From: a virus
Lineage: Duplodnaviria; Caudoviricetes
Length of the DNA: 50,221 nucleotides
Reading direction: 5' to 3' (one strand)
Virus record (IMG/VR): IMGVR_UViG_3300038393_000928
Location: 1-50,221 of that record
The notes below the pieces were generated by a model that did no database searches, was not told the DNA's origin, and saw only the letters and a program-made list of their open reading frames with translations. The position numbers and the translations under genes were made by a program. Below, piece after piece: positions 913 to 45,652 of the stretch; the first letter of the stretch is position 1; each line of letters begins with the position of its first letter.

Positions 913-1757
913 CCCAACCCCAATCCAAGGATGGACGGAGAGAAGATATGGCCGTGATCCCGGGGCCTAGCGAACAACCTGGGGGCCGCGACCTGTGTTG
1001 GTTCTCCGATGGCATCGCTAGCGCCGTCGCCGCAAAGTTCTGGCTGCGGGACAATCCTGAGGCCTTGGTTGTCCACTGCGACACCGGGTCGGAGGACGAA
1101 GACAATGCCCGCTTTCGGGCAGATTGCGTCCGCTGGCTGAACCGCGAGATTATCAGCCTCAAGAACCCCGATTTCGCCGACAACTACGCGGTGTGGTCGA
1201 AGCGTCGCTACATGAGCGGTATAGCTGGCGCTCCCTGCACCATGGAACAGAAGGTGACGCCACGGCTCGCCTTCCAGCAGCCCGGTGACGTCCATGTGTT
1301 CGGCTACACCTGGGACAGCAAGGACCGCGAGCGGTTTGAGAACTTCCAGAAGAATTACCCCGATCTTATCGCCCGCGCACCGCTGATCGAGCGCGAGATT
1401 AGCAAGGCCAACTGCCTCGCCATGATGCAGGACACAGGGATTGCTCCGCCCCGAACCTATGCGATGGGCTTCCCGAACGCGAATTGCCTTCAGACGGGAT
1501 GCGTGAAGTCCACCAGTCCGGCCTATTGGGCGCTGTTCCGGAAGGTTTTCCCAGATCGCTTCGCCAAGACGGCCGCTATGGCGCGCGACCTTGGCGTCCG
1601 CTTGGTGATCCTCGATCGCGAGGAGCTGCCTGACGGCTCGGTCAGGAACATCCGCGGATTCATCGACGAGATCCCCGCCGACCAGTCCACGCTCAACCCT
1701 ATCGCTCCTGCGTGCGATTTCCTCTGCCACATCAACGGACAGGACTTGGCCGCATGA
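909..1757 (+). CDS. PAPS reductase-like / PP-loop family protein (alternative start 948)
   Basis: WFSDGIASAVA PP-loop-like motif, EDEDNARF, APCT..K, GFPNANC...GCVK. Confidence 0.75.
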   Translation: MTQPQSKDGRREDMAVIPGPSEQPGGRDLCWFSDGIASAVAAKFWLRDNPEALVVHCDTGSEDEDNARFRADCVRWLNREIISLKNPDFADNYAVWSKRRYMSGIAGAPCTMEQKVTPRLAFQQPGDVHVFGYTWDSKDRERFENFQKNYPDLIARAPLIEREISKANCLAMMQDTGIAPPRTYAMGFPNANCLQTGCVKSTSPAYWALFRKVFPDRFAKTAAMARDLGVRLVILDREELPDGSVRNIRGFIDEIPADQSTLNPIAPACDFLCHINGQDLAA

Positions 1758-1933
1758 CTGCAGAACCGCACAACGTGGGCCAGCGCGTCCGTTCGATATT
1801 CGATGAGCGCGAGGGCGTCGTAATCGAGAGTGACCCCGTCAGGACCCTCATCGAGTTTGAAGATGAGGACCAAGGCGAACCCTTCAAACACCGCAAGTGG
1901 CTTCCTACTCGGCATTGGGAGCCTGTCCCATGA
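1754..1933 (+). CDS. Hypothetical protein
   Basis: ATGA overlaps at both ends; MTAEPHNVGQRV... Confidence 0.65.
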   Translation: MTAEPHNVGQRVRSIFDEREGVVIESDPVRTLIEFEDEDQGEPFKHRKWLPTRHWEPVP

Positions 1934-2649
1934 CCCCTACCAAGAAGGAAGCTGCTGGGCTGCGGGACACGGTCGCTCAGATCATCGGCTCCTATGTCGT
2001 TGTCGACGATCATGGCGGCCCGGACACCGTCACCCTGCATGACGAACTAGGCGGCAATTCGTACGAGGAGAACACCCGCCGCCTCTACGAGCTGACGGAC
2101 GAAGTTCTCTCCTCCCTCCCCGCCTCTGCCCCGGCTGCTGGGGTAGAGGAAGCGGTAGAGCGGGCCGCGCGGATCATCGATCCGTGGGCTTTCAAGCAGT
2201 ACGAGTGGGCCAGCCGCGACGACAACACGGAGGCGCTTCGGACGGCTATCCGGGAGATCGAAGCCGCTCGCACCAAAGCCCGTGAGATCTTCTCCGCCCT
2301 TCCTGTGTCTGTGGGTGGGGATGGTTCATCCGTTGCCAAGAGTGCCAGCGAGGGCCTTCGGCCGTTCGCATCCGAGGGTCAGCGGAAGTCGGAAGGCGCG
2401 ATCCGCCAGCCGCAGGACATCGCGACCGATTGGCTGGAACTGGCCCGCGCCGCTGAGCGGTACTTCGATCGGTATTGCCAAGACGAGGCTGCCGACGATT
2501 TCCATGAGTTCGTTGGGTGCAGCTCGGACCAGCACGCAGATGCCGCGGCCCTCCGCGATGCCTTGAAGGACGTGAGCGCTGACGAGTTGGTCTACGCGCT
2601 CTGCGCCGCCACGGCTCCTCAGAAGAAGCCGGAAGGGGAAGGGTCGTGA
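1930..2649 (+). CDS. Hypothetical mosaic protein
   Basis: ATGA coupling; internal palindromic linker at about 2317-2396. Confidence 0.7.
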   Translation: MTPTKKEAAGLRDTVAQIIGSYVVVDDHGGPDTVTLHDELGGNSYEENTRRLYELTDEVLSSLPASAPAAGVEEAVERAARIIDPWAFKQYEWASRDDNTEALRTAIREIEAARTKAREIFSALPVSVGGDGSSVAKSASEGLRPFASEGQRKSEGAIRQPQDIATDWLELARAAERYFDRYCQDEAADDFHEFVGCSSDQHADAAALRDALKDVSADELVYALCAATAPQKKPEGEGS

Positions 2650-2954
2650 GCGTCCGCAAGAACTACTCCTGCGACTTGTGCGGAAGCGGGATCACCGACA
2701 CGAACGGCGTCGGGATCATCCACATGGCGGCCGGCGACATACGCGCGGTGTGGCTGCACAAGGAGGGGGCCGGTCGCCACCTCTGCAACGGGTGCGTCAA
2801 GGGCCTTAGGGCTATGCTGGCCGACCTAGACCGCACGTCACAGATCCACGCGGAACTAGACGAGGCAGAAGTGGCGGCCCGCTCTCAGGCTGGCACCTCC
2901 GATGCCGAACTAGGCCCCGGGAGGCCAAAAACCCCTTCCTCTGAGGGCGAGTAG
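2646..2954 (+). CDS. Hypothetical Zn-finger-like protein
   Basis: CDLC...HLCNGC; GTGA coupling. Confidence 0.7.
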   Translation: MSVRKNYSCDLCGSGITDTNGVGIIHMAAGDIRAVWLHKEGAGRHLCNGCVKGLRAMLADLDRTSQIHAELDEAEVAARSQAGTSDAELGPGRPKTPSSEGE

Positions 2955-2955
2955 C

Positions 2956-3549
2956 ATGGGCGAGAAGATCACGAAGGCTCAGCGAGAGATCGTCAGTCGA
3001 GACCCGATTGCGGCCCGGCTCGTCGCAAAGCTCGCCCCGGCCGACAACGGCTGTTGGCTCTGGACCGGCTGCAAGAACGAAGACGGCTACGGCACTGCCT
3101 TTATCGACGGGAAGGGGCGGAAGGTCCACCGGGAGATGTACGCACGGTTCAACGGCCCGTTCCCGCCAGGCATGTTCGTCTGCCACCACTGCGACACTCC
3201 CTCATGCGGCAACCCCGCACACCTCTTCGCCGGCACTGCGCGCGACAACATGCGCGACATGGTCGCCAAGGGCCGGGCGGTCTGCATCACGTCGGAGCAA
3301 GCCCACTTCCGCGCCGGCCACTCTCCGCGAGGCGAGGCGACAGCTGCCGCCAAGCTGACCGAGGATGATGTCCGCGAGATAGTGCGGCTGCGCCGTTCAG
3401 GCATTGGCTCGACGGCGATAGGCAAACAGTACGGCGTCAATCGGACCACCATTCAGCGACTGCTCAACGGCCAGACTTGGGGTCACGTGGCCGGTCGTGC
3501 GGCTCTGTCGGAGGCCGAGACACTCAATTCAGGAAAGGAAGGGGCATGA
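2956..3549 (+). CDS. HNH endonuclease (HNH_3 type) with C-terminal HTH
   Basis: CWLWTG...GYG...HR...VCHHCD.PSC.NP.HL..GT..DN..DM..KGR; KLTEDDVREI HTH. Confidence 0.9.
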   Translation: MGEKITKAQREIVSRDPIAARLVAKLAPADNGCWLWTGCKNEDGYGTAFIDGKGRKVHREMYARFNGPFPPGMFVCHHCDTPSCGNPAHLFAGTARDNMRDMVAKGRAVCITSEQAHFRAGHSPRGEATAAAKLTEDDVREIVRLRRSGIGSTAIGKQYGVNRTTIQRLLNGQTWGHVAGRAALSEAETLNSGKEGA

Positions 3550-3731
3550 TCGACCCCGACGATAACGACTTCTACGAGGACTCCGAATGCATGGACTGCC
3601 CCGACTGCTTCGGCGAGGGCGGTTACAACTCCTGCATGGAGGACTGCTGCCCGGCTATCGGCGGTGAAGAGGGCTGCACCGATCCGGCCTGCTGGAGGGT
3701 GTGCAGCACTTGCCGGGGTATCTGCGCATGA
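3546..3731 (+). CDS. Cys-rich small protein (11 Cys in 61 aa, CxxCxGxG)
   Basis: ATGA coupling; CPDCFGEG...CSTCRG. Confidence 0.65.
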   Translation: MIDPDDNDFYEDSECMDCPDCFGEGGYNSCMEDCCPAIGGEEGCTDPACWRVCSTCRGICA

Positions 3732-4615
3732 CCACCCACCCAAACGGGGCGGACAACGCCGAACTGCGACGGGAATTGCTAGAGCCACGCAGGGGCTTCC
3801 ATGCCGGCGACTGTCAGAACTGCGACGAAGACCTGAAACGCCGAGCCGCTGAAGCCCTGGAAGCCGCCGAGCGCGAACGGGACGAGGCGCGCGCTCTGTT
3901 GGCCGAGTTGCCGGATGACCGCGCGCTGATCTACGCCAATCTGAGCGCCCGTGCTGAAGCCGCCGAGTCCAAGGTCTCCGATCTAGAGCGGGAGAGGGAG
4001 AGCCTACGTCGTCAGGCCGAGCAATGGGCGATGGAAGCGCGTGCCCACAAGTCGTCGCTGCATGAGGCCTATCAGGCGGTCACCGGAGCCACCGGCGAGC
4101 CCGGCAACTGGAATGGCGCAAGACCCATCATCGAGGCGTTCGCCGGCCTTGAGCGAAAGCTTGAGATCGCCAACAACCGCATCTCGTTCGAAATCGGCGT
4201 CTCTGAAGACCTAGAGCGACAGCTTGGAGAGGTGCGGGGGGTGTTGGATGCCATGTACGACGAGTACATGAAGGACGAGGCCTGCGACCACACGGTGATC
4301 AATCGGCTCATCGAAGAGGCTCATGCCGCCTTGGGGGCATCATGTACCGAGAGCGGCGGTACGGCTTCGCCGAAATCCGATGGGCTCTGCAAGTCGGAAG
4401 GGTGGGACGCCGCCGAGTTTGATCACTGGTTTCAGGTCGTTCGCGATTGGTCTGGATCCGCACTCGTGGCTGACGAGAAGATCCCCGCGAGGCTGCGGCG
4501 CGAACACCTGCTGGCTCTCTACGGCGACCTTTGCAGCCTAGGGAACTACTTGGCGGCCTGGGCGGACATGGCGCGCCACGTCACTGACGACGGTTCTCCG
4601 CTGGAGGGAGAGTGA
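3728..4615 (+). CDS. Coiled-coil hypothetical protein
   Basis: ATGA coupling; heptad-rich EAAERERDEAR segments. Confidence 0.7.
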   Translation: MTTHPNGADNAELRRELLEPRRGFHAGDCQNCDEDLKRRAAEALEAAERERDEARALLAELPDDRALIYANLSARAEAAESKVSDLERERESLRRQAEQWAMEARAHKSSLHEAYQAVTGATGEPGNWNGARPIIEAFAGLERKLEIANNRISFEIGVSEDLERQLGEVRGVLDAMYDEYMKDEACDHTVINRLIEEAHAALGASCTESGGTASPKSDGLCKSEGWDAAEFDHWFQVVRDWSGSALVADEKIPARLRREHLLALYGDLCSLGNYLAAWADMARHVTDDGSPLEGE

Positions 4616-5076
4616 TGCCCGTCCGCGTTCAACTCAGCCGGGCCAAGGGCTGGCGGATGCCCGAGAACACCGTGAAGGTGGATCGGACGACGCGCTTCGG
4701 AAATCCGTCTCTCTGCACTCGGCCGCATAACTGCTCGCTCGCGCCCTGCGAATGTTGTGGTGGCGATCGGTGCTGCGTGTTGGTTTTCCGAGAGTACGTG
4801 ACGAGCGGCTTAGAGGGCCGCAGCTCTGAGACGGGGTCGCTCTCTGTCGCCTTGGATGCCTACGCCGGGTACCCACGGAGGGCTAGGCTCGTCGAGGGAC
4901 TTCCCAGCCTTCGCGGTAAGAACCTCGCGTGCTGGTGCAAACTGGACGCGCCATGTCACGCTGACGTGCTGCTGGAACTGGCGAACCGAGAGCCGACGCG
5001 CGAAGCCGGAGGCCCCACTGAGGTCCAGCTAGGCCCCGGGAACGCTTCAAATCCTGATCCTAAGGTGCAGCCGTAA
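4612..5076 (+). CDS. DUF4326-like protein
   Basis: R.KGWRMPENTV.VDR.TRFGNP...LRGKNLACWC....PCHADVLLELAN. Confidence 0.8.
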   Translation: MMPVRVQLSRAKGWRMPENTVKVDRTTRFGNPSLCTRPHNCSLAPCECCGGDRCCVLVFREYVTSGLEGRSSETGSLSVALDAYAGYPRRARLVEGLPSLRGKNLACWCKLDAPCHADVLLELANREPTREAGGPTEVQLGPGNASNPDPKVQP

Positions 5077-5288
5077 TGGGCCGGGCCGTGTCGCAAGCGC
5101 AGATGCGCCGCATGAAGCGCGCCATCGAGGGCGAGGGCCTTCCCTTCGCTGGCTACCTGTCCAGGCCGGATGGGAGCGTGCTTGCGCTGGTGGGCGAGCC
5201 CTTGACCTCCCCTGCCGATATGGCGCCACCCTCTGACCCACTCGACGCAGAGCTAGCGGAGTGGGCGGCCAAGCATGGCTATGATTGA
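5076..5288 (+). CDS. Small protein upstream of integrase (possible excisionase/directionality factor)
   Basis: Position and overlap with int; function inferred from position only. Confidence 0.5.
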   Translation: MGRAVSQAQMRRMKRAIEGEGLPFAGYLSRPDGSVLALVGEPLTSPADMAPPSDPLDAELAEWAAKHGYD

Positions 5289-6345
5289 GCTCAAGGGCCT
5301 CTACACGGTCACGGCCAAGGGCCGGACCTATCACTACGCCTGGCGGGGCGGCCCGCGCGTCAAGGCTCCCTACGGCACGCCAGCGTTCGCCGCAGAGTTC
5401 GCCGCGCACCACGCCGATCGCAAAGGCGGCGACAAGTCCAAGATGTCAGGGCTATGCGCCATGTTCCGTGCGTCGGACGCCTGGAACGGCCGCGGCCCCA
5501 AGCCCATCAGCGACAAGACCAAGGCGAGTTGGACCAAGTGGCTCGACCGGATTCAGGAAGAGTTCGGGGATCTGCGCGTCGAGCAGTTCGACAGACCCCA
5601 GATGCGGCCCATCATCACCAAGTGGCGGAACAAGTTCGCCGCGACCCCCAGAGCTGCCGACATGGGCATCCAAGTGCTCTCGCGCCTGCTGAGCTTCGGC
5701 CAGGCCGAGGGCAAGCTCCTGAACAACATCGTGGCCGGCCGCGGCATCGAGACCATCTACAGCGCTGACCGCTCCGGCATGATCTGGACGCAGGCGGATC
5801 TGGACGCCCTGAAGGCCGTGGCCCCGCCCGAGATCGTGCAGGCCGCCATGTTGGCCTCGCTGACCGGCCTCCGCCAATCGGACCTCCTGAGGCTGTCGTG
5901 GTCGCACGTGAAGGCCAACAGTATCGAGATCGCCACCGGCAAGAGCAAGGGCCGCAAGACCACGCTCATTCCGATGTACGGCGAGTTGCGGACCTACCTC
6001 GAGGGGCTGAAGAAGCGCGCAACGACGGTCCTGGTGACGACGCGCGGGCGCCCCTGGAAGACCGGCTTCGGCTCGTCCTGGCGGGAAGCCAGAGACGCCG
6101 CCGGGATTGCAAACCTGCACTTCCACGATCTGCGCGGAACCGCCGCAACCCGGTTCTATCGTGGCGGCCTGTCGATCCGCGAAATCGCGGAGATCATGAC
6201 GTGGTCGGAGGACTACGTTGAGACGCTGATCGACCGCTACGTGAAGAAAGATGAGCTGCTGCTGGACCGGATTCGCAGGCTCGACGAGAACGCATCGGGA
6301 GCATCGAATGCAAAACCCGATGCAAAACTGTCGGGAGCGAGCTAG
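5275..6345 (+). CDS. int: Tyrosine recombinase / phage integrase
   Basis: TGLR, K, HFHDLRGTAAT, IMTW...RY catalytic pattern; N-terminal YHYAWRGG arm-binding-like region. Confidence 0.95.
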   Translation: MAMIELKGLYTVTAKGRTYHYAWRGGPRVKAPYGTPAFAAEFAAHHADRKGGDKSKMSGLCAMFRASDAWNGRGPKPISDKTKASWTKWLDRIQEEFGDLRVEQFDRPQMRPIITKWRNKFAATPRAADMGIQVLSRLLSFGQAEGKLLNNIVAGRGIETIYSADRSGMIWTQADLDALKAVAPPEIVQAAMLASLTGLRQSDLLRLSWSHVKANSIEIATGKSKGRKTTLIPMYGELRTYLEGLKKRATTVLVTTRGRPWKTGFGSSWREARDAAGIANLHFHDLRGTAATRFYRGGLSIREIAEIMTWSEDYVETLIDRYVKKDELLLDRIRRLDENASGASNAKPDAKLSGAS

Positions 6346-6526
6346 ACCATGGAAGCCAAATTCCATAGTATAATCAATGTTCCGGCGTGGTCGGGGCGGT
6401 GTGATTCGAACACACGACCCTCTGCTCCCAAAGCTGGATGCACGCCAATACAGTCAATGCCTTGCGTGTGAAACCCACTTCAGACGGGCGAAACTGAATC
6501 AATGACTTACCAGCTACCTGCAAAAC
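6309..6526. promoter_or_regulatory. attP arms: TGCAAAAC repeats and IHF-like site
   Basis: TGCAAAAC at 6309, 6321 and 6519; AATCAATGACTTA (WATCAANNNNTTR) at 6497-6509. Confidence 0.6.
6388..6434 (-). other. attP core = 3' half of tRNA-Pro(TGG)
   Basis: Reverse complement GCTTTGGGAGCAGAGGGTCGTGTGTTCGAATCACACCGCCCCGACCA contains anticodon loop TTTGGGA, T-arm and CCA; 5' half absent; 42 bp after int stop. Confidence 0.9.
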
Positions 6527-7056
6527 TTTCGGGCGGCTCTGAGGGGGCTCCCTATTGGGGGTTTGTCCATCCGTCAATCGGGGCTGAAGGGCACGCCGCG
6601 TGGTTCGCGAATTGCTGGGTGTATGTCATCGCGTCCGGCCGCGACGAGAAGCCCGTCAAGATCGGGATCAGCCAAGATGTGCCGGCGCGCATCAAGGCTT
6701 TCGAGGCGGGCAACCCCTACGGCCTGCGGGCCGTCTCCACGCATCTCGCGCCTCGCGGAATGGCGCGCCAGGTCGAGCGCCGCCTTCATCGCCTGTTCGC
6801 CGATGTCGCTCTGGGCCGGGAGTGGTTCGAGCTAAGCGCCCACGATGCGGCCAAGCCGATCCCCGACCTGTGCAACAAGGCACGAATGGCCTGCGAGGCG
6901 TACCGGGATGACATCCTGGCGGAGCCAGAGCTCGACGCTCTCATGACCGAGAAAGCCGAGGAGATCACGCGCTTCAAACGCAGGCTGTACCAAGCGACTG
7001 CGGAGAGAGCTTACGAGCGCGCTCAACAGATCGCCGCAAGACGGAGGCGCGCATGA
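6502..7056 (+). CDS. T5orf172/MUG113-like GIY-YIG domain protein (start uncertain)
   Basis: VYVIA...VKIGIS.D...R......GNP...E..LH..FA......EWF. Confidence 0.8.
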   Translation: MTYQLPAKLSGGSEGAPYWGFVHPSIGAEGHAAWFANCWVYVIASGRDEKPVKIGISQDVPARIKAFEAGNPYGLRAVSTHLAPRGMARQVERRLHRLFADVALGREWFELSAHDAAKPIPDLCNKARMACEAYRDDILAEPELDALMTEKAEEITRFKRRLYQATAERAYERAQQIAARRRRA

Positions 7057-7071
7057 AGCGCCTCACGGCGG

Positions 7072-7230
7072 TCACCGCTTCCGAGCGCGGCGCTTGAGCT
7101 CAGCGTCGATGGCTCGCCGGATCAGCGAGACCCGATCCTCGTTATCGGCCAGGGCCGCATCCACCTCAGCCAACATCTCCCGCGTGAGTGGGAGTGTGAT
7201 CCGAATCGGAAACAGCTTGGCGCGCGGCAT
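7072..7230 (-). CDS. Ribbon-helix-helix (CopG-like) regulator
   Basis: MPRAKLFPIRITLPLTREMLAEVDAAL...RVSLIRRAI: beta strand plus two helices. Confidence 0.7.
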   Translation of the reverse strand: MPRAKLFPIRITLPLTREMLAEVDAALADNEDRVSLIRRAIDAELKRRARKR

Positions 7231-7244
7231 GCGAGCCGGTGTGC

Positions 7245-7335
7245 CGTATGTACGAATGTCTGTCAAAGCTCACCTTTTCCGTATGTACGCTATTGACGCT
7301 ATCATATGTACGATATAGCTTCAATCGTAGATACG
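7245..7335. promoter_or_regulatory. Divergent promoters with four CGTA-NN-TACG operator-like palindromes
   Basis: CGTATGTACG 7245 and 7280, CATATGTACG 7303, CGTAGATACG 7326; TTGACG 7293 (+) and TTGACA 7266-7261 (-). Confidence 0.7.
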
Positions 7336-7351
7336 AAACGGAGAGAGGCAG

Positions 7352-7795
7352 ATGACCGCGGAAACCTTCACCTTGGACACCTCGGGCGAGGTACAGTTCC
7401 GTGACAGCCACGGCGAGCTGATGAGCTATCGCTGGATCGAGCTAACCCCCTTCGTTCAGGGGTACATCGAGGCGCTGTTTGCGGAGATCAGCGAGTGGGC
7501 CACGCACACCTATGACGAAGCAGCGGGCGCGCAAGTTCCCCTCGGCTTCCGTCACCTCGCCCCCGAAGCCCTAGCGGCGATCCTGACGGACTGTGAGGCG
7601 ATGCTGAGTAGTCTGCACATCAGCGAAAGTCGGGACAGCGGGCGCAACGCCTGGGACGCCCGTCAAACCGGATGGAAGACCTGGGGGACAACGCCCCGCA
7701 AACGCTTCCCTCCCCTCACCCCGACGCTTGGCGAGGACGGCTTGGGCTACCTCTCCCCCGAACGCTCTGGAGTGAAGAATGAAGGAAATCAATAA
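7352..7795 (+). CDS. Hypothetical protein, first gene of accessory array
   Basis: GGAGAGG RBS; intact ORF. Confidence 0.75.
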   Translation: MTAETFTLDTSGEVQFRDSHGELMSYRWIELTPFVQGYIEALFAEISEWATHTYDEAAGAQVPLGFRHLAPEALAAILTDCEAMLSSLHISESRDSGRNAWDARQTGWKTWGTTPRKRFPPLTPTLGEDGLGYLSPERSGVKNEGNQ

Positions 7796-7796
7796 G

Positions 7797-8084
7797 ATGA
7801 GCTCCCGGAGCCAGCCTTGCGGCGATGGGACCCAGCCCATCCAGCCCCCTACCGCCGAGCCTTCTGCGGCCGAGCGGCTCGTCAGCGCCTTGGCCACTTA
7901 CGATGCCTACGTGGCGAAATGTCCGGTCAACAACTTCGAGATCGATCGGCGCGTCTACGGCCCGAATGACAAGTGCTCGGCGTGCGGGGCGCAGGCGAAC
8001 GGGAACTGCGGAAAGGAGTCGATTGCCTCCTACTACCTAGTCGCAGAAGTGCGAGCCATCGCCAAGGCGGAGGGTCAGTCGTGA
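7797..8084 (+). CDS. Hypothetical protein (CSAC...C)
   Basis: Starts 1 nt after upstream stop; N-terminus encoded by inverted repeat copy. Confidence 0.65.
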   Translation: MSSRSQPCGDGTQPIQPPTAEPSAAERLVSALATYDAYVAKCPVNNFEIDRRVYGPNDKCSACGAQANGNCGKESIASYYLVAEVRAIAKAEGQS

Positions 8085-8284
8085 GCTTCTTGGAAGACAT
8101 CGGACGGTATGTGGACGGCACCCTCCAGGACCGCGATGTCCATACGTGCGACGTCGAGTTCACGCGGGTTCCAGGCAGCGGACGCGAGACCGGAGACGGC
8201 TTCTCGTGCGATTTCGACGTCCTGCTTCAGGGGAAACGAGCGCGGGTCACCGTCAGCGTTACGAAGTCAGAGAACCCGTCATGA
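8081..8284 (+). CDS. Hypothetical protein
   Basis: GTGA/ATGA coupling. Confidence 0.6.
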   Translation: MSFLEDIGRYVDGTLQDRDVHTCDVEFTRVPGSGRETGDGFSCDFDVLLQGKRARVTVSVTKSENPS

Positions 8285-8436
8285 GGCGCGTCCAGCTTGA
8301 GTTGGGTCCGCTCACGATAGCGGTCGGCTTGTTCTGCTGTTTCGAGGCCTCGCGGTCTCCGCCAGGGCTCGCGTTTGGCCCGTTCGCCATGATGTGGACG
8401 CCTAGCCTTCCAGGTTGGGGGATCAGCTTTTGGTAA
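8281..8436 (+). CDS. Small hydrophobic protein
   Basis: ATGA coupling; MRRVQLELGPL... Confidence 0.5.
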   Translation: MRRVQLELGPLTIAVGLFCCFEASRSPPGLAFGPFAMMWTPSLPGWGISFW

Positions 8437-8506
8437 GCCAAAGAAGCCGAGAACCCGTCATGAACCCCCTAGTGAGTTCTGAGACCGTTCCAGATCACGG
8501 AGAAGG

Positions 8507-8983
8507 ATGATGCCGGCGCCAATGACGGCTGAGAAGTTCTGGTCGAAGGTCGATCGCTCGGGTGGCGAGGGTGCTTGCTGGCCGTGGCTGGGGTCGTTCT
8601 TCGAGAACGGATATGGCCAAGTCTCCTGGAACTACAAGAAGCTGCGCGCTCATCGCGTCGCCTACACCCTGACCAATGGTCCGATCTCAGACGGCCTGCT
8701 GCTCGACCACATCGAATGCAAGAATCGAGCGTGCTGCAACCCGGACCATGTTCGACCCGTCACGCCGCAGATCAACTCGATTGAGAACAGCGACGGACAG
8801 TCCGCGCTAAACGCGGCGAAAACGCACTGCCCACAGGGTCATGCCTACGCTGGTGACAATCTGATCTTCGGAAAGGGAAGGCGCGGACGCCCCGAGCGCA
8901 GATGCCGAACCTGCCATCGAGAGAAGAATGCGAAATGGCGGGCCAACGCCAGTTCGGAGACGAAGCAGGGGATCGAACCGTGA
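8507..8983 (+). CDS. HNH endonuclease (HNH_3 plus KTHCPQGH Zn domain)
   Basis: FWSKVD...CWPW...GYG...AHRVAY...DH..C.NR.C.NP.H; KTHCPQGH...R.CRTC. Confidence 0.9.
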   Translation: MMPAPMTAEKFWSKVDRSGGEGACWPWLGSFFENGYGQVSWNYKKLRAHRVAYTLTNGPISDGLLLDHIECKNRACCNPDHVRPVTPQINSIENSDGQSALNAAKTHCPQGHAYAGDNLIFGKGRRGRPERRCRTCHREKNAKWRANASSETKQGIEP

Positions 8984-9213
8984 CGGACATCGTCACCCAG
9001 CAATTCCGCATCAGGGCGCGGCTGAGCATCGCGGATTGGGAGTACGTCTGCGCCGCCCTGAACGACGCCTACGCGCTGCGGGCGGTCAACGCGTATATCG
9101 CCGAGCACAAGGTCCGCTGCTACTCGGACGTGGGCGGCATGGCCAGGCGGACCGCCTTCCAAGAGGTCGAAGACCTGATTTCCAAGACCAAAGCAGGGAT
9201 CGAAACGCCATGA
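8980..9213 (+). CDS. Hypothetical protein
   Basis: GTGA/ATGA coupling through repeated junction. Confidence 0.65.
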   Translation: MTDIVTQQFRIRARLSIADWEYVCAALNDAYALRAVNAYIAEHKVRCYSDVGGMARRTAFQEVEDLISKTKAGIETP

Positions 9214-9683
9214 GCGAGCGTCTAGCAGCGGCGGTCGAAAGAGGTCGCGCGGAGGGCAAGCTGGCGCTGTATTTCGGCTGCTGGAACCGGCCTGGACACT
9301 ACCTGCACCGCCCTGACGGCAATACACTCTGGGACGCCAAGCAGAAGATTCCCGGCTTCCCCTGGTCCGACGCGTTGATGGACGGTGGCCTCCTGAATAA
9401 CGGGAAGCGCCCTGACGTTTACGACGGCAAGGTCTTCTCGACTTGCGGCGGCCTGTCGTTCTGGTGGGCCTTCTTCTGGTGGGACAATTCCGTTGACCGG
9501 CGCGGTGCCAGCAACTCGGGCTTCTATGTCCGAGGCTTCGCCTTCGATGAGCGAGAGGCCGCCTTTGCTTACGCAGGCGAACAGTTCCCCAGCGTCGTCG
9601 CCCGCCAAAAGCATTCGCTGATTCTGCAACCGCCTCGCGCCACCCCTGCCACTTCCAAGACCGAGATAGGGATCGAACCATGA
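9210..9683 (+). CDS. Trp-rich hypothetical protein
   Basis: YFGCW..PGHYLH...DGGLL...WWD.SVD.RG.SNS; ATGA coupling. Confidence 0.75.
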   Translation: MSERLAAAVERGRAEGKLALYFGCWNRPGHYLHRPDGNTLWDAKQKIPGFPWSDALMDGGLLNNGKRPDVYDGKVFSTCGGLSFWWAFFWWDNSVDRRGASNSGFYVRGFAFDEREAAFAYAGEQFPSVVARQKHSLILQPPRATPATSKTEIGIEP

Positions 9684-9880
9684 GCTACGACCTGAACGCG
9701 CTCGCTCAGAAGATGGACGAAGCCATCAAGCGCGCAGCGATCACGCGAACAGAGAGCGTGAGGCTGGACTTATGGGCGCCTGAAGCTCGCGACCTTCTCA
9801 CCTTGCTACGCCACCACATCACACGCGTAGATCCGGCCGGTCTGAGCAACGCCGCTTCAATCCCTGAGACAGGCTCCTAA
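9680..9880 (+). CDS. Hypothetical protein
   Basis: ATGA coupling. Confidence 0.6.
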   Translation: MSYDLNALAQKMDEAIKRAAITRTESVRLDLWAPEARDLLTLLRHHITRVDPAGLSNAASIPETGS

Positions 9881-9979
9881 CAGCCATGAGCCATGTTCGC
9901 GATCACGGCCGTCGCACCCACAAACCTACCCCTGCCCGATCCGCCCACCCCCTCCCTAGGAAGAGAATAAATGGAAGAT

Positions 9980-10514: not shown

Positions 10515-10516
10515 AC

Positions 10517-11840: not shown

Positions 11841-11849
11841 CCGGAACAC

Positions 11850-37703: not shown

Positions 37704-39890
37704 TTAGGCCGCCATCGCTGGCGTTGGCCCGCCCTGGTCGTCGCCCGCTGGCGACCCCATGCGCTGGGCCAACATCGCCGCGAGTTGTTCCGGCGGCGCG
37801 CCCTGCCCGGCCGCCTCAAGGATGTCCGGGCTGTTGAAGAGCTGCGCCAGGGATTGGCTGATCACCGCCTCCATAGCCGCCGGATCATACGACGCGCCCT
37901 TGGGGATCACAGCTTTCAAGCGGTTGGTCTCGGCATTGTAAGCATCGATCTCGACCTTGCGTCCCTCGACCGACTTATCCGCCTTCAGAGCCTCGTTCTC
38001 GCCCTTCAGTTGCCCGATGACCTGGGCCATCTTCTGGATCTGCGCCTTGGCCGCTTCTGCCTCTGGGCTCTCGCCCTGAAGCTGCGCGGGCAGCATCGCT
38101 TTCAGTCGCTCGGCCACCTCATCAGCGCCCGGCCAATCGAGGTTCTTCGCCAACAGGTCCCCGATCAGCGGGGCGGCCTGCGGGTAGGCGCGAATGAACT
38201 CGATCATCTGGTTCGCCGCTTCTTCTCGGCGGCTGGTGAAACTCGGGCCGGCGGTCACGGTGAGGTCGTACTTGCCGACGTCCAGGCTGTAGATGCGGGC
38301 CACCTCGGCGGCCTCTTCCATGCCCTCGGGCTGTTTGGCCTGCTCTTGCTCTGCCATGGACTTCGGAGCAACGCGAACCGTCGCAACGTCACCGTTCGGC
38401 CCCAGGATGCGGGCGACGCGCGGCGTAGCGTAAACCTTCGGGATCAGGTCCAGCAGGATGCGTCCTGCGTGGCGGATGGAGCGCGACAGGTTGTCGATGT
38501 AGTGGAACGTGCCGACGTCGCCCTCGCGCTGGCGCGCCATGATCGCGCGGCCTGAGGTCTCGTTGCTGCGAGCGCCCAACGAGGCGTCGTAGAGCCCCAG
38601 GATCGCCTTCATGTCGTCCGAGGCGTTCAGGGCCTCTTGCAGCGCTCCGGCCGGAACCCCCGCGAACGGCTGCCGCTGGGGACCGACGGCGTCCGACTGA
38701 CCCTCAGGAACGTCGTACTCGATATAGGCGTGGCTCTGCGTGTTCGCCGTCGCCCACTTGGCCTGGTCGGTTTCGAACATGCCGACACGACCGATGAACG
38801 GAGCTTTGGGCGCCAGCGCAACAAGTTCAGTCGACGTCGTGCGCCAGTAGTTGAACTGCCGTTGAGCGTCCATCGCCGAGCGGACCAGGCCGGACAGATG
38901 GCGCTGCCCCTCGATGTTCAGGTCTTCGCCATACACCGGGACGATGGGAATCCACTTGCCCGCCCACGGATTGGTCTCAAGCACGTTTGCGCCCGACAGG
39001 ATGCGCTGCTCAACGCTGTGGCTGGGCACGTCGCGGGGCTGGCCGACGACCTCATAACCCAGCGCGTCGAACAGTTCCTTTTGCGCCTTGTAGACCGCCT
39101 CCTCGATGATCATGCTCTCGGGGAGAGCCTGACCGATCTGGGCTCGCTCTTCGTCGGTCAGCGGGCGCGTGGGGCGAAGCGCGAGAATGCGGCGCTTGGT
39201 CTCCGTCCGAACCCACTGATAGGCGATCTGGATGTTGTCGCTGTCGCCGGCGGCCCCAGACTTGCGGGCGAGGCCGTTGGCGTCGAAGCTTACCGCTTCG
39301 GCATCCTTCCAGCGACGCTCGAACGCGCTCCGGCGCATGTTCTCGACTTCGAACGCGATGTTCCAGTCAGACGAGTCCGCGGCGGTCGTGTCGGGGTCCG
39401 GGATGATGCTGAACGCATTCGACACCGGCTCGATAACGATGTCCTGTTCGAAGCCGTCTTCCGTGGCGTAGCGGGTGTTGATCTTGAAGAAGCCGAAGCC
39501 GCCCGTGGCGCTGTGGTCGATGGCGGTGTCATAGGCCACGTCAGCGTCGCTGGACTGCTCGATGTGGCGGATAAGACCGTCATAGACCTCCGCCGTCTCC
39601 GGATCGCTCTCGTCGTCTACGGGATGGACGGTGATCGACGGCTTGTTCTGGCGGGCGTCGTTGACGACCTGGCGAATGAAGGCCGGGAGTTTGTTGATGG
39701 TCAGGCACGGACGGCCTTCAAGGTCGCGTTGCTTGCGGACCTTCTCGGGCCACTGCTCACCCAGGCGGGCGAAGCGGAAATCCTCCAGGGCGCGGTTGTA
39801 GTTCTCGCTCCACGCCTCGTTCGCGCGGGCGAACTCCGCCTTGGCGTCTTCGAGCTCGTCGTCTTCGCGGGAGGTGTCAGCGCCGGCCAT
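37704..39890 (-). CDS. Portal protein (P22-like)
   Basis: G.QW......R....RPCLTINKL...SNETSG.AI.ARQ.EGD. Confidence 0.92.
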   Translation of the reverse strand: MAGADTSREDDELEDAKAEFARANEAWSENYNRALEDFRFARLGEQWPEKVRKQRDLEGRPCLTINKLPAFIRQVVNDARQNKPSITVHPVDDESDPETAEVYDGLIRHIEQSSDADVAYDTAIDHSATGGFGFFKINTRYATEDGFEQDIVIEPVSNAFSIIPDPDTTAADSSDWNIAFEVENMRRSAFERRWKDAEAVSFDANGLARKSGAAGDSDNIQIAYQWVRTETKRRILALRPTRPLTDEERAQIGQALPESMIIEEAVYKAQKELFDALGYEVVGQPRDVPSHSVEQRILSGANVLETNPWAGKWIPIVPVYGEDLNIEGQRHLSGLVRSAMDAQRQFNYWRTTSTELVALAPKAPFIGRVGMFETDQAKWATANTQSHAYIEYDVPEGQSDAVGPQRQPFAGVPAGALQEALNASDDMKAILGLYDASLGARSNETSGRAIMARQREGDVGTFHYIDNLSRSIRHAGRILLDLIPKVYATPRVARILGPNGDVATVRVAPKSMAEQEQAKQPEGMEEAAEVARIYSLDVGKYDLTVTAGPSFTSRREEAANQMIEFIRAYPQAAPLIGDLLAKNLDWPGADEVAERLKAMLPAQLQGESPEAEAAKAQIQKMAQVIGQLKGENEALKADKSVEGRKVEIDAYNAETNRLKAVIPKGASYDPAAMEAVISQSLAQLFNSPDILEAAGQGAPPEQLAAMLAQRMGSPAGDDQGGPTPAMAA

Positions 39891-40132
39891 TAGGCAGCGT
39901 TCCTCAGCGCCGGATAGAGACGCTCCGCATTGTCGGCCAGCCAAGCGGGGATATCCGTCAGTTGATCGCGCTGGAAGTCGGCCTCAGCCCGGACGCCGTT
40001 CATGTCGTCGCCGATCCAGACCGACCAACCGCCATCCCAGAAGGATTGCAGGCCGCAGTTGATCTCATGCGCGTAGAGAGCGCCCAGAACGGTTTCGAGG
40101 GCGCAGTCGCGGATGGTTCGATCCCAACGCAT
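39890..40132 (-). CDS. Hypothetical protein
   Basis: Coupled ORF between terL and portal. Confidence 0.6.
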   Translation of the reverse strand: MRWDRTIRDCALETVLGALYAHEINCGLQSFWDGGWSVWIGDDMNGVRAEADFQRDQLTDIPAWLADNAERLYPALRNAA

Positions 40133-40335: not shown

Positions 40336-40691
40336 TACGCCTGCCCCTCCACTTCCATCTGCCGCATGATCGAAGCCGTCACGATCTCGCCCACCCGCTT
40401 GACCAAGGTGCGGATCGCCTCAATCACCGGCGCCAGCGGCACGGCCTGTCCAGCCGCCACCAGTTCGTCGGCCCACGTCGAAGCTTGCTCGGGCAACAGA
40501 CGCCGGAGTCGCTCCCCGTCCCACACCGCGACCATCAACGGGCCATCGTCGGGATGGACCAGGCCGAGCACCAGACCGTAAGCCTCGAGGTCCACTTGCT
40601 CGCTCAGCATTCCGGGCGGCGGCATCGTGAAGTCGGGCGGATCGAACTTGGCCGCGCGCTTGGCGATGCGCTGGTGTGAGGCTCGGGTCAT
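40335..40691 (-). CDS. Hypothetical protein
   Basis: ATGA coupled to terL. Confidence 0.6.
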   Translation of the reverse strand: MTRASHQRIAKRAAKFDPPDFTMPPPGMLSEQVDLEAYGLVLGLVHPDDGPLMVAVWDGERLRRLLPEQASTWADELVAAGQAVPLAPVIEAIRTLVKRVGEIVTASIMRQMEVEGQA

Positions 40692-42181
40692 GACATCCAT
40701 CCGCCAGCGCCGATGTGCGGCTTGGGCTTCGGCTTCTCCACCGGGGCGTTCGGCTCTGGCGCTGTCGCCCCCGTTCGGAGCGCATCGGAAGGGTGGGAGG
40801 CCCAGTCGTGCCGGGGTTTAGACCCCCAAACGCCCCGCTCCTCGATCCATTCCTTGCGGTAGTTCTTCAGCGCCTTGATGCCGTCTGCGCACTTCTTCTC
40901 GTCGAAATAGGCGCGCGGCAGGAGGTTCCGAACGACATCGATCCCATCGGCGACGGGAAGTTGCGGCGCAACGATCCAAGGCTTTAGGCCCAGCGCCACC
41001 GCCGTCTCGACGCGGCTTTTGCCGGTGTTCAGTTCGCGGATGTTGCTGTCGTGCGGCCCGATGTGTCGGGAGTAGAGGTAAGGCTTGTCAGAAATGACCT
41101 TGGCGTAGTGCGGCAGGCCCTCGCCCGAGTTGGCGTAGTAGTCGATGAACCGAACCTCGCGCTTGAACCGCTGCACGAACCAGATGGACATTTCGTCGTC
41201 CATCCCTAGGTCCCACCAGGTCTCCACCGGAAGCTGTGGCTCGTGGGGAACCCGGCCGATCCGCCCGTCAATCTCCGCCGCCGCGATCTGTGCGGCGTAG
41301 AACGCGCCCTCAACCGAGGCCTCGAAGGCCTCCTTCGGTGTGGACGGATACTCGCGCTTCATGTCGTCGAGCTGCGTCTCCGCCTTCTTCGTGTACCAGG
41401 CGCGCTGGCCGGCGGTGAGCGTCTGGCCGACCACCGCTTCAACCTCGGCGAAATACTTCTCCATGCTGGGCGGGATCACCACCCCCTCGGGGTCCATAGT
41501 GTAGGTCGGCTCCCGCCACCACGGGAAGAAGTGGAACTTCCAATCCAGCGACGTCAGCTTTGAGCCCAACCGCTGCTTGGCCTGCGCTTCCTCGCACATG
41601 TCGAAGAAGCGCCCCTCCTGCCCCTCCGCGGTGCTCTCGATGAAGGCCATCTGACCTTGCTCGATGGTGTTGAGCGCCCCCGTCACGATCTCGCGGGCCT
41701 TGTGGGGGAACCGCGCGCAGATCTTCCCGAACTCTGAGATGTGCAGATACTGCAGCGTTCCGCCGCGGAGGCTGGTCCCGACGCGGATCAGGCTGTTGTT
41801 CGCCAGTTCCAGCGTTGTTGTGTTGTCCCGCTTGATCGGGTTCGACGCTTTGATCTGGTCCGGTAGGTTGTCGTACGCGTACTTGATCTTGTCGCGGAAG
41901 ATCGCCTCCGCGTCGTCCTTCGTGTGCGCAATCACCCCCGCCCGAGTGTCGGGGAAGAACACGCAGGCATCGAGCATGTAGATCTCGATGAAGGTCGTGA
42001 ACCCGAGCTGGCGCGCCTTCAGCACCAGGTTCAGGAAATGCATCTGGTCGAGAAGCTCCTCCTGCGCCCAGTTCATCTGGAAGCGCTGGCGGACACCCTC
42101 CTTGTCGGTGATCCAGTAGAGATTGTTGAGGCGCCAGCGATGATCGCTGAAGCTCTCAAGAACCTGGGCGGGGACGGCCAT
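40688..42181 (-). CDS. terL: Terminase large subunit
   Basis: LKARQLGFTT Walker A, LHISE Walker B, ESTAEG, WDLG.DD nuclease, HDWASH..DA. Confidence 0.95.
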   Translation of the reverse strand: MAVPAQVLESFSDHRWRLNNLYWITDKEGVRQRFQMNWAQEELLDQMHFLNLVLKARQLGFTTFIEIYMLDACVFFPDTRAGVIAHTKDDAEAIFRDKIKYAYDNLPDQIKASNPIKRDNTTTLELANNSLIRVGTSLRGGTLQYLHISEFGKICARFPHKAREIVTGALNTIEQGQMAFIESTAEGQEGRFFDMCEEAQAKQRLGSKLTSLDWKFHFFPWWREPTYTMDPEGVVIPPSMEKYFAEVEAVVGQTLTAGQRAWYTKKAETQLDDMKREYPSTPKEAFEASVEGAFYAAQIAAAEIDGRIGRVPHEPQLPVETWWDLGMDDEMSIWFVQRFKREVRFIDYYANSGEGLPHYAKVISDKPYLYSRHIGPHDSNIRELNTGKSRVETAVALGLKPWIVAPQLPVADGIDVVRNLLPRAYFDEKKCADGIKALKNYRKEWIEERGVWGSKPRHDWASHPSDALRTGATAPEPNAPVEKPKPKPHIGAGGWMS

Positions 42182-42620
42182 TCGAAGCCACGGCTTCCAT
42201 CAGGGCGGCGAACGGGTTGTTTCCGTCCGGATCAGTGACGACGGTTTCGTGCCGGTCGCGCCAGACTTCCTTGCGGCGGTTCTTCAGCCAGAAGATGCCC
42301 GCGGTCGTATCCGGCGGGTAATGCTCGGTGAACGGCACTTGCGTAATCTCGCCGCTAGCCGAGACGTGGATCTTCACAGCGTCGTGCTGGTAACCAACGG
42401 CCCGGCGATAGAGCGATTGCTCCACCCGGTCGTCCGCCTGTTCCTTGCCCACCTTTAGGGACTCGCAAAACTCCGCGTGCTCGTGCTTCCAACGATGAAG
42501 CGTCGCTTCGTTCACGCCGAAGAAGTCGGCCGCCTCTCGGTCGGTAGCGCCTAGCGCCGCCAGCTTTCGGGCCTGCTCGATGAACTCGGGCTTGAACTTG
42601 CTGGGCCTGCCGCCGGCCAT
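42156..42620 (-). CDS. terS: Terminase small subunit
   Basis: GRPSKF...GATD.E.A.FFGV...TL.RWK..H.EF...PPDT.A.IFWLKNR. Confidence 0.9.
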   Translation of the reverse strand: MAGGRPSKFKPEFIEQARKLAALGATDREAADFFGVNEATLHRWKHEHAEFCESLKVGKEQADDRVEQSLYRRAVGYQHDAVKIHVSASGEITQVPFTEHYPPDTTAGIFWLKNRRKEVWRDRHETVVTDPDGNNPFAALMEAVASNGRPRPGS

Positions 42621-42922
42621 CACGCCACCCTCGGCCAGTGCAGATCGATGCGGCAACGGCCGCCTTCGCGCACTTCAGTCCACCCAGCCGGGCCGTCATC
42701 GCGCTCCGCGGCGCTCCTCGCCAGCACGGACCACGCTATCCGCCGCTCTTCCTCAGTTGGCGACGGCGTCGAGAGACGAACGCTCATCGTGTCGCTGTCG
42801 GCCGGCGCCATGCTCAAGTAGGGGAGCGACCTGGGATTGATCCGGGCCTCGGCCGCGTCGAGCTTCCGAAGCTCTACCTCCATAGCGTGGAGATCCGCAG
42901 GCAGTTCGCTGGCGTCAGCCAT
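42620..42922 (-). CDS. Hypothetical protein
   Basis: TGATG coupled to terS. Confidence 0.6.
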   Translation of the reverse strand: MADASELPADLHAMEVELRKLDAAEARINPRSLPYLSMAPADSDTMSVRLSTPSPTEEERRIAWSVLARSAAERDDGPAGWTEVREGGRCRIDLHWPRVA

Positions 42923-43924: not shown

Positions 43925-43961
43925 GGGTCCTCCCGGGAACTTTCACGTTCGACCTGTGGGC

Positions 43962-44171
43962 CTAGGTGGACGCGGGTTCCACCATCGTCTCAGTACCGTC
44001 GGCATGAATGGTGATCCGCCGACACCAGACGCACCCGGCCCGCATCGCAGCCTCAGCTTCATCCCCCTGAAGGCCACACACCGGCGGGCCTTGGCAGACG
44101 ATCACCTTGGGATCTTCATCCCCGAACCCAGCAGCGATCATATCGGGGAGAAGCGCTTCGGGTGGCCGCAC
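43962..44171 (-). CDS. Cys-containing hypothetical protein
   Basis: CQGPP.C...C.WC; GGAG RBS. Confidence 0.55.
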   Translation of the reverse strand: MRPPEALLPDMIAAGFGDEDPKVIVCQGPPVCGLQGDEAEAAMRAGCVWCRRITIHADGTETMVEPAST

Positions 44172-44391: not shown

Positions 44392-44534
44392 GGGGACCTC
44401 GCACAGAGGTAGGGAAGCCCGCTCACCGACACGTGCGTAAAAGCGTCTGGCGCGATGAGTGCTGTTGTTCGGGGCGGGCTGTCTGGGAGAAATCGGCGAC
44501 CTGAACGCAAGGCCTCGACGATTTCATTTCGGTA

Positions 44535-44563
44535 GTTTTGGCACACCATCTTGTGTGCGTCAA
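44535..44563 (-). promoter_or_regulatory. Putative late promoter
   Basis: TTGACG...GCCAAAAC (Caulobacter sigma70-like) overlapping the stop of the upstream regulator, with internal GCACAC/GTGTGC inverted repeat. Confidence 0.45.
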
Positions 44564-45330
44564 GCCCTCCGACGCAAAATAGTGACCTCGAATGGTTTCC
44601 CGGTCTCCGTCGCCTCCGGCTGCACCTCCAGGCCGTCATCGGTCTCATAGCGCACCGGAACTTCCGTGCGGCCGGCACGAGCGCGCTTGAACGGGAGCGG
44701 CGTGATGCGCGCCGTCTGGCGCTTCGGCGGACGTAGAGCGCGAGCGATTGCGGACAGCCCGTGCAAGAGGTTCTCTTCCTTCGTCAGATCCCTGACCCCC
44801 AGCGCGTGGGCCGAGGCCTTCTTGGGCATCCAGAACGGCCACGAACCGAGGACACACACGAGGAACAGTTCCTCGCGCTCGGTAGCGCTCAGCGCGACAT
44901 TCAGTCGCTTCCAGCGCTCCAGGGCCGCAGCCTCAAGCTTGGGCCTATCCTCGGGCTGGATATCGCCGCTGAACACCCGGTCGAAGATGTCCACAATCTC
45001 AGCATCGCTCATCTGCGACCAGTTCATGCGAAGCGTCTCGCTGGGCGGGACCTCCGCCAGGCTCCCGCAGCTCATGCGAGGGCCGCCGATGTGCGACAGG
45101 TTGAACGCCGCCCTGTACGACATGGCGTCCCGGTGCATCTGCTCCGTGATCCATTGACGTGACAGGGCAAAGTCTAGGGGGTGCTCCCCCGCCGACGCGT
45201 CCCCCGCTTTGCGGCGGGTCAAGAGCGCTTCGTTGGGCGCCGGCGGCTTCAGCTTGCCGGACGGGTAGCGGTCGCCGGATTTGCGCGGCCGACCAGCTTT
45301 GCTGGAGCCTTTGGTCTTACGTCGTGCCAT
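44560..45330 (-). CDS. Putative late-gene regulator (Q-like position)
   Basis: AGRPRK.G.R.PSG N-terminus; last early gene before the putative late promoter. Confidence 0.5.
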   Translation of the reverse strand: MARRKTKGSSKAGRPRKSGDRYPSGKLKPPAPNEALLTRRKAGDASAGEHPLDFALSRQWITEQMHRDAMSYRAAFNLSHIGGPRMSCGSLAEVPPSETLRMNWSQMSDAEIVDIFDRVFSGDIQPEDRPKLEAAALERWKRLNVALSATEREELFLVCVLGSWPFWMPKKASAHALGVRDLTKEENLLHGLSAIARALRPPKRQTARITPLPFKRARAGRTEVPVRYETDDGLEVQPEATETGKPFEVTILRRRA

Positions 45331-45361
45331 GGCTAGCCCCACTTCCTTTGAAAGGTTTTGC

Positions 45362-45652
45362 TCATCCCGGAACACTCGCCGACACCTCTGCGCCCTCGGG
45401 TGCCGCGGCCCCTCGGGTCACCTCGACTCTAAGTCCTTGGCGAGCGTAAGAGCCCCGCGTGGGACTGAACTCGTCCAGCACCGTCTCAACGACGTGCTTC
45501 ATCTGCCGGGGCTTCTTGACCCCGCAATCCCAGAGAGCCTGGACGACGCTAAGGCCGTACTCGTGGATCAGCGCGCGGATTTCCGGGTCGTATTCATCGA
45601 CCTTCTCCATCCGCTTGCGGCGCTTCTCGTCAATCCAGGCTTGTTCGTGCAT
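45362..45652 (-). CDS. Hypothetical protein
   Basis: R.LIHEYG..VV ORF. Confidence 0.65.
   Translation of the reverse strand: MHEQAWIDEKRRKRMEKVDEYDPEIRALIHEYGLSVVQALWDCGVKKPRQMKHVVETVLDEFSPTRGSYARQGLRVEVTRGAAAPEGAEVSASVPG

Follow-up and report, generated by a model that had tools for sequence, protein, structure and literature searches.

Phage genomes are mosaic, and the sequences at which their parts are exchanged have seldom been defined. In T4-type phages, the promoter early stem-loops (PeSLs) are short intergenic motifs made up of a strong sigma-70-like promoter and a terminator stem-loop, which flank non-essential genes in plastic regions of the genome and act as exchange points between otherwise unrelated sequences, with indels and replacements mapping to them in the cases those reports set out (PMC2839356, PMC4122927). 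For temperate phages, relaxed recombination provides a precedent, as presented in the relevant parts of that study (PMC3945230). Short dispersed motifs have also been described in mycobacteriophages: according to the passages devoted to them, the Start Associated Sequences of cluster K (SAS, with an extended form, ESAS) consist of a 13-bp asymmetric word with a Shine-Dalgarno (SD) core, lie 3-7 bp from a start codon nearly always, keep a near-single orientation in the non-structural part of the genome next to varied gene families, do not occur in the host and have no known function (PMC3203893), and the stoperators of cluster A are numerous binding sites for the immunity repressor across the genome (PMC9283540; also PMC6550527). 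Here we describe a directional repeat of ~31-36 bp in IMGVR_UViG_3300038393_000928, a virus record of IMG/VR that is complete at 50,221 bp (completeness estimate 97%), the whole of which was analysed and is referred to as the window, and in other, uncultivated phages of soil. The repeat lies at seams between non-structural genes, and identical copies of it stand between genes that are otherwise unrelated. We propose that this element is a portable gene-junction, or linker, sequence whose copies provide short stretches of homology for the shuffling of modules, a proposal to which we give an even chance of being right.

An earlier note on this DNA had listed nine copies of the element in the window. 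There are exactly four occurrences of its core word CTAGGCCCCGGGA, one on the minus strand at 958-970 and three on the plus strand at 2910, 5029 and 11702, whereas 500 second-order Markov simulations averaged 0.002 and never exceeded one; the reversed-pattern control of the same word has no occurrence in the window. Looser definitions performed at chance, with 12 matches for a 14-mer allowing up to three mismatches (10.5 expected) and nine for CCCGGGA alone (8.8 expected), and were uninformative. To avoid circularity, we used 24 copies of other phages, excluding those near-identical to window copies, to train a covariance model on sequence alone, and ran it unfiltered across the entire window. 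This gave 41 matches at E<=10, the best six of which are six of the listed copies (Table 1), with the next match at E 0.28. The remaining three, at 45404-45365 on the minus strand, 7803-7832 and 9986-10011, were not found on their own strand at that threshold and therefore six of the nine stand; the repeat in the window is real, and smaller than first claimed. The lengths given for four of the copies (31, 31, 31 and 34 nt) were borne out, as was the near reverse complementarity of copy 958 to copy 11684 (86% between 958-985 and 11687-11714). Five of the six copies are co-directional with local transcription, lying in the terminal codons of an ORF (2892, 5011 and 10733) or right behind one (11684 and 43931), and one (958) is inverted, which leaves a single verified inverted copy in the window where three had been named. 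Verified inverted copies do lie just past start codons, 6-18 nt after the start in three independent cases, and the distances from window copies to the next start codon downstream are 6, 7, 27, 33 and 34 nt. The structural genes (16.4-42.2 kb) contain no model match better than E 0.6, in agreement with the claim that they are free of credible copies. Taken together, these results support a directional family located at gene seams.

Besides the window, the IMG/VR records in which pattern scans detected the family are G001-G009 and L218. Five copies each are carried by G001 (53.9 kb, complete), G004 (42 kb, with terminal repeats) and G005, one or two each by G006-G009 and one by L218, and the fragment G002 has copies and flanks equal to those of G001. 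G003 (L059), a 29-kb fragment, has 11 credible copies, and between 12311 and 20054 seven co-oriented copies and one inverted copy surround an excisionase/integrase/attP module, with units down to 165 bp. The right half of copy 43931, GTGAAAGTTCCCGGGAGGA, recurs in G006 and G008. The 24-mer of copy 2892 is found unchanged in five contexts, namely the window, G003/G004, G005, L222/L224/L227 and L223/L228, and the upstream proteins in these contexts are alike only in their last 11-33 residues. Downstream there is an HNH nuclease, an excisionase-like helix-turn-helix protein, a second HNH-like protein or an ORF (open reading frame) of unknown function, all mutually unrelated (L222, L224 and L227 had no ORF called downstream). 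The identical stretches are 24-27-mers, with zero synonymous changes in the 24 nt, and in every context identity stops at the same base past CCCGGGA. Further spacer subtypes are also common to at least three records, and the copy at 11021 in G005 is chimeric, its left part being of the 11684 type and its right part of the 10733 type. The word GGCCCGCTCTCAGG, which the earlier note had seen upstream of two window copies, was confirmed at 2876 and 10717, and the two ORFs concerned are alike only in their last ~26-29 residues.

Alignment of the 24 foreign copies resolved the element into a left box GGMCMCCWC (consensus GCGGACACC-C; GGCMCCWC in the window), a spacer of ~14-20 nt that varies in both length and sequence, and an invariant right box CCCGGGA. 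GGA often follows the right box and provides an SD sequence, and in two window copies the element forms the ribosome-binding site (RBS) of the next gene, as had been stated, through CCCGGGAGGA-N3-ATG at 10766 to 10774 (ORF 10774-11178) and at 43931 to 43924 (ORF 43924-43649). The left box is read in phase 0 in many upstream ORFs and in phase 1 in at least five copies, some copies contain a stop codon, and others are reversed or intergenic, as at 11684 and 43931. The translated tails LGPGR, LGPGN and RGPGR and the leader IPGPS, all noted earlier, were also found. The element is therefore conserved and acts at the DNA level, and an explanation as a coding peptide was rejected, since copies are found in two or more reading phases, in reversed orientation and in intergenic DNA. 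Folding of 33 copies with their flanks gave a mean z of -0.22 and no common hairpin, and anti-SD/SD pairing between the boxes was seen in some copies only, without covariation. The two boxes are unlike each other, with no inverted arms in the 24-copy alignment. A crude scan with the E. coli consensus gave one sigma-70-like promoter in 1-16500 (5588-5615) and none at the copies, and a consensus scan gave no terminator-like site at the confirmed copies. Sigma-54, extracytoplasmic function (ECF) and Caulobacter sigma-73 promoters, compared by eye, fitted single copies only and were discarded.

The window and G001 are nearly unrelated: of 77 ORFs, three exceed 90% identity, to which a further comparison adds a fourth, 15051-15293 (98.8%). 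Still, they have short patches at 90-97% identity in common. Breakpoints between relatives had been predicted to fall at the element, and such breakpoints are found in or at it at 987|988, 2915|2916, 10743|10744 and 11714|11715. Homology in the patch 909-987 stops at 987, the outer edge of the inverted copy, and 26 common N-terminal codons there continue into two unrelated proteins of 282 aa (window) and 361 aa (G001). In the patch 2916-2978 homology starts inside the right box, and the gene bodies beyond it are unrelated; the first eight codons of the HNH gene 2956-3549 equal those of a different G001 gene, and its body (2979-3723) is replaced in G001-like soil contigs. Copy 11684 is identical in G001, where ATGACCGAAAG (window 11850) comes 7 nt later, and both G001 and G002 have these 7 nt where the window has 11715-11843. 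This insertion is one of two that adjoin the element, the other being ORF 10774-11178, which is present in the window and absent from G001-like contigs. Mapping of assembled soil contigs gave 16 listed joints (15 and 11714>11849, the latter with ACGAAC between), among them 2651>2916, 2978>3724, 8074>10723, 11247>11680 and 10743>11214, which has 26 other letters between that equal the right half in G001. The two phage types are found together in the same soil runs. Comparison of G003 with G004 shows the copy at 27422/13501 as an island of 49 bp whose flanks are replaced, and the extra small ORFs of G003 each end in, or are followed by, a copy. When the ends of high-scoring segment pairs (HSPs) between the window and G001 were examined, one lay within 10 nt of five of the six copies, compared with nine of 41 motif-free gene starts; random windows gave a mean of 0.61, and none of 5000 draws reached five. 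In the opposite direction, G001 against the window, a homology end was seen at four of five copies compared with 15 of 49 gene starts.

The element straddles the seam where one gene of a non-structural arm ends and the next begins, and often provides the terminal codons, the surroundings of the stop codon or the SD sequence. We suggest that near-identical copies at many seams of co-occurring, otherwise unrelated temperate phages constitute short homology patches, at which general or phage-encoded homologous recombination could cross over and so exchange whole neighbouring genes or modules; recombination at the element would also spread the element itself. The recombination genes of the phage comprise NinB/Orf, an exonuclease and a Holliday-junction resolvase. 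Crossover sites vary between the left edge of the element, the position after the left box, the position before the right box and the right edge, as expected for homology-driven exchange, and together with the lack of inverted arms and the separate attP of the integrase this favours such exchange over a site-specific reaction. The element may also act in cis on expression of the gene that follows it, a role made plausible by its supply of RBSs, the starts abutting CCCGGG and its fixed place before a small-ORF/integrase pair in four records.

Several observations weigh against this proposal or qualify it. Eleven of the 16 listed joints lie away from any copy, so the predicted coincidence of breakpoints with the element was found in part only and the element is one class of seam among several. 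Other patches common to the window and G001 (9862-9997 and 7747-7870, at 82-90% identity), which cover intergenic DNA and the first codons of the next ORF, indicate that seams without the element behave similarly. The contigs that carry the joints are G001-like, and the joints are therefore not independent of the BLAST comparison. Some of the HSPs run from element to element, so the window/G001 figures are inflated and the test is partly circular, and the HSP at copy 5011 is an island only. The link between copies and junctions that is seen for the window and G001 was not reproduced with G003 and G004, where three of 11 copies compare with nine of 30 motif-free gene starts and two of five with 10 of 33; the excess over other gene boundaries is confined to the window/G001 pair. 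No single-strand annealing protein was found among the ORFs scanned. Lastly, the sequence conservation is unaccounted for by an RNA fold, a sigma-70-like promoter or a terminator, and the spacing of the boxes varies by ~6 nt.

That the repeat is an artefact of chance or of base composition in a GC-rich genome, or a conserved peptide at protein C-termini without meaning at the DNA level, is barely credible: CCCGGGA alone and the loose 14-mer are indeed at chance, and most coding copies read CCC GGG as Pro-Gly and give similar Pro/Gly-rich tails by eye, but the simulated expectation for the 13-mer, the recovery of six copies by an independent model, the reversed, intergenic and out-of-phase copies and the identical 24-mers without synonymous differences in five contexts refute it for practical purposes. 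The element could also be a purely cis-regulatory site, whether operator- or stoperator-like, start-associated or an unusual promoter starting at the final A, which a host or phage factor recognises and which is linked to junctions only through its position at gene boundaries. We consider this unlikely, while recognising that it would suit the directionality of the element, its confinement to the non-structural arms and its nearness to start codons, including CCCGGGAGGA-N3-ATG in several genomes and CCCGGG-ATG abutting plausible ORF starts in G003, G004 and G005. A copy also precedes a small-ORF/integrase pair in the window, G003, G004 and G005 despite integrases that are merely 34% identical, the G003/G004 pair has no junction excess over other gene starts, and the published account of cluster K SAS/ESAS, in the passages that describe them, fits such a site (PMC3203893). 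However, selection for binding leaves unexplained why identical spacers stand between unrelated flanks in five contexts; box spacing is variable, the next start lies anywhere from 0 to 34 nt away and copies in G003 are as close as 165 bp. Moreover, no copy is present in the divergent control region at ~49.4-49.8 kb, where the best match has E 2, and no sigma-70-like match was found at any copy.

A dedicated system of cassette exchange, in which the element is the recombination site, CCCGGGA the crossover core and a specific phage recombinase or nuclease the agent, strikes us as quite improbable, and its boldest form, a dedicated phage nuclease or atypical recombinase that cuts or exchanges at the invariant CCCGGGA edge, as improbable to the same degree. 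If true, a group of temperate phages of soil alphaproteobacteria would capture, drop and swap single genes in frame, in the manner of an integron, including the integration module itself. The right end that is sharp and invariant in all contexts, the spacer subtypes common across genomes, the chimeric copy in G005 and the G003 array, with seven co-oriented copies in 7.7 kb and a smallest unit of one 58-codon ORF, are compatible with an enzyme, as are the inverted copies just past start codons and the direct copies that bracket the integration module in G003, G004 and G005. Against one stand the breakpoints, which vary among four positions within the element, and the absence of any candidate. 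The element has neither the inverted arms of simple tyrosine or serine recombinase sites nor a conserved hairpin, units in the window are multi-gene with gaps of 0.9-5.7 kb, and many gain/loss junctions have no element. PHROG scans found no dedicated recombinase beyond the integrase, which has its own tRNA-type attP; this attP is unlike the element and was rejected as an instance of it. No protein is common to all element-bearing records except common lambdoid genes such as NinB, which is present in the complete G001, G004 and G006 and in most fragments. The earlier view of the copies as ends of mobile cassettes, resembling terminal inverted repeats (TIRs) or att sites, fails on the same varying breakpoints and missing hairpin, and on the absence of a target duplication around 958-2922. 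Finally, the element could be a conserved target of free-standing HNH homing nucleases, or a landing site next to a target, with breaks that drive gene conversion of the flanks. In three cases a copy and an HNH gene are indeed separated by 33-46 nt (2956-3549 after 2892, 535-912 before 958, and 6926-7288 after 6851 in G005), and the body of 2956-3549 is replaced in G001-like DNA past its first eight codons. Nevertheless, we hold this to be very unlikely, given that no copy lies close to the window gene 8507-8983 or to the HNH genes of G004 and G008, that a strong copy is found in only one of three loci with relatives of 535-912, and that each of several spacer subtypes would require its own enzyme.

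We also searched for the element outside these records. A soil metagenome scan gave 10 loci, nine of them family members, with two of these from the G004 record. In representative bacteria, with one genome per prokaryote species, a stricter pattern gave 31 single matches in unrelated taxa, none with a family-type spacer, and on this evidence a host repeat was rejected. Cultured phages gave no megablast match to queries of 12.5 and 22 kb, and with 41-nt element queries either no match or five weak partial matches at E 8. A loose two-box scan of IMG/VR returned mostly chance matches, and among the matches listed ~6 of the 114 new loci examined look family-like. Judged by these sequence searches, the motif appears to be undescribed, although no literature search was made for the motif itself.

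The window is the genome of a temperate, P22-like phage with an integrase and a tRNA-type attP, and its capsid is P22-like. The plus-strand arm runs from ~49.4 kb across the end of the record to 11.85 kb. The portal, terminase, scaffold, ejection, tail and lysis genes were identified by PHROG scans, and a tRNA scan found no tRNA genes in the window. The attP stretch shows loose ends at 6387, 6419 and 6434 when soil contigs are mapped, and contigs X2 and X4, at 140-245x depth, match it and nothing else in the window; these high-depth contigs behave as the host attB would. A GcrA-like cell-cycle regulator at 47915-48271 on the minus strand (PF07750, 47.4 bits against a cut-off of 26.9) suggests that the host is an alphaproteobacterium. 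A methyltransferase gene is located at 15147-16418. Between the small ORF 7072-7266 on the minus strand and ORF 7352-7795 on the plus strand, the less GC-rich divergent region 7266-7352 contains repeated GTACATA/TACG words and promoter-like TTGACG...TATAGC words and possibly serves in immunity or as a switch. The non-coding 129-bp patch 13390-13518, located upstream of the lysis genes on the minus strand, is 97% identical in the otherwise unrelated G001 and contains the inverted repeat TGTACAG-N5-CTGTACA, and it looks like a common late control region. G001 also matches window positions 49624-50221 and 1-407 at 95-97% identity with ~3.2 kb separating the two matches, which would be a further module difference if the ends of the window record are contiguous.

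Table 1. Copies of the element, patches in common with G001 and main genes of the window. Model matches are those of the covariance model built from foreign copies.
Feature	Position	Strand	Model match	E	Context
Copy 958	958-987	-	958-984(-)	0.039	Inverted relative to local plus-strand genes; 7 nt after in-frame ATG 948 of ORF 909/948-1757; translated IPGPSEQPGG
Copy 2892	2892-2922	+	2889-2924(+)	5.7e-5	3' tail of ORF 2646-2954 (..GTSDAELGPGR..); 33 nt before ATG of HNH gene 2956-3549
Copy 5011	5011-5041	+	5011-5041(+)	0.049	3' tail of ORF 4612-5076 (..GPTEVQLGPGN..); 34 nt before small ORF 5076-5288, which precedes integrase 5275-6345
Copy 10733	10733-10766	+	10730-10769(+)	1.4e-4	Weaker copy, 34 nt; tail of ORF 10517-10777
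Copy 11684	11684-11714	+	11684-11715(+)	2.3e-3	Intergenic, past ORF 11245-11667
Copy 43931	43931-43962	-	43928-43959(-)	4.8e-6	Intergenic, minus arm; best model match
Patch	909-987	+			79 bp, 97.5% to G001; start codon, 26 codons, inverted element
Patch	2916-2978	+			63 bp, 95% to G001; right box, tail codons, stop, RBS, first 8 codons (MGEKITKA)
Insertion	11715-11843	+			129 nt adjoining right edge of element; membrane-like 32-codon ORF 11742-11840
NinB	21-407				Plus-strand arm
HNH genes (three)	535-912, 2956-3549, 8507-8983				Plus-strand arm
Tyrosine integrase	5275-6345				Plus-strand arm
attP core of integrase	~6387-6434	-			Reverse complement of tRNA 3' end, directly past integrase
Lysis genes	12.3-13.2 kb				PHROG scan
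Scaffold, ejection and tail proteins	16.4 to 42.7 kb	-			PHROG scan
Major capsid protein	33640-34836				P22-like capsid
Portal	37704-39944				PHROG scan
Large terminase	40688-42181				PHROG scan
Small terminase	42156-42656				PHROG scan

Unlike a transposon with TIRs or a miniature inverted-repeat transposable element (MITE), the segment 958-2922 has 13 identical outer bases in inverted orientation but flanks, GTGA and GGCC, that are not a duplication, and no transposase was found among the ORFs scanned. The element likewise differs from att, lox, dif and gix sites, which have two inverted arms around a fixed crossover of 2-8 bp, whereas its breakpoints fall at four positions. Integron attC and shufflon sfx sites are directional and lie 3' of small gene units, and sfx has one conserved and one variable arm; attC sites, which go with an IntI-type integrase and attI, are imperfect palindromes and fold as single strands. 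Our element resembles them in its directional sites at gene 3' ends, in the array of units in G003 and in its one conserved and one variable arm; it differs in that we found no recombinase of the IntI or Rci type, palindrome or hairpin, in that its breakpoints are not fixed and in that its units are often multi-gene. Stoperators are asymmetric sites of 13-14 bp with one orientation relative to transcription, and the repressor also binds the early lytic promoter. The element is likewise a short asymmetric site dispersed in a temperate phage genome; it differs from stoperators in having six copies, none of them in structural genes, near 49.4-49.8 kb or at 7266-7352, and no link to a repressor. 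In lambdoid phages, boundary or linker sequences have reportedly been proposed, under the modular-evolution model, as crossover points in the formation of mosaics, by Susskind and Botstein and by Clark et al. in 2001. The element shares with these linkers that it is a short conserved sequence at gene boundaries, but it is a single defined, directional, multi-copy family with spacer subtypes, and it occurs in phages almost without other DNA similarity.

Of the mycobacteriophage motifs, SAS is like the element in its one orientation (five of six window copies), in the absence of copies from the structural part (16.4-42.2 kb in the window), in preceding genes of varied families and in its absence from the host. 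The spacing to the start codon fits SAS in two of the six window copies (7 and 6 nt) and the others are at 27-34 nt or inverted, with more that fit in G003, G004, G006 and G008. The two differ in sequence, the upstream box of the element does not form an inverted repeat, and the passages that describe SAS make no tie to mosaic breakpoints (PMC3203893). Should the element also prove to serve as a binding site or to signal expression, it would be a proteobacterial case beside these unexplained boundary motifs of mycobacteriophages.

One directional word thus marks exchange points in uncultivated temperate phages of soil, with a 24-mer that joins five unrelated gene pairs, and it offers a searchable marker of module boundaries, a substrate on which recombination by short homology or by an enzyme could be tested and possibly an engineering handle for such phages. 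In outcome the element is like PeSLs, as the relevant sections of those reports present them, with indels and replacements between relatives mapping to it. In construction it is unlike them, having no promoter and no stem-loop, being shorter and often translated in the upstream ORF, and residing in temperate P22-like phages. The swapping of genes at seams is accordingly a new example of a process known from other phages.

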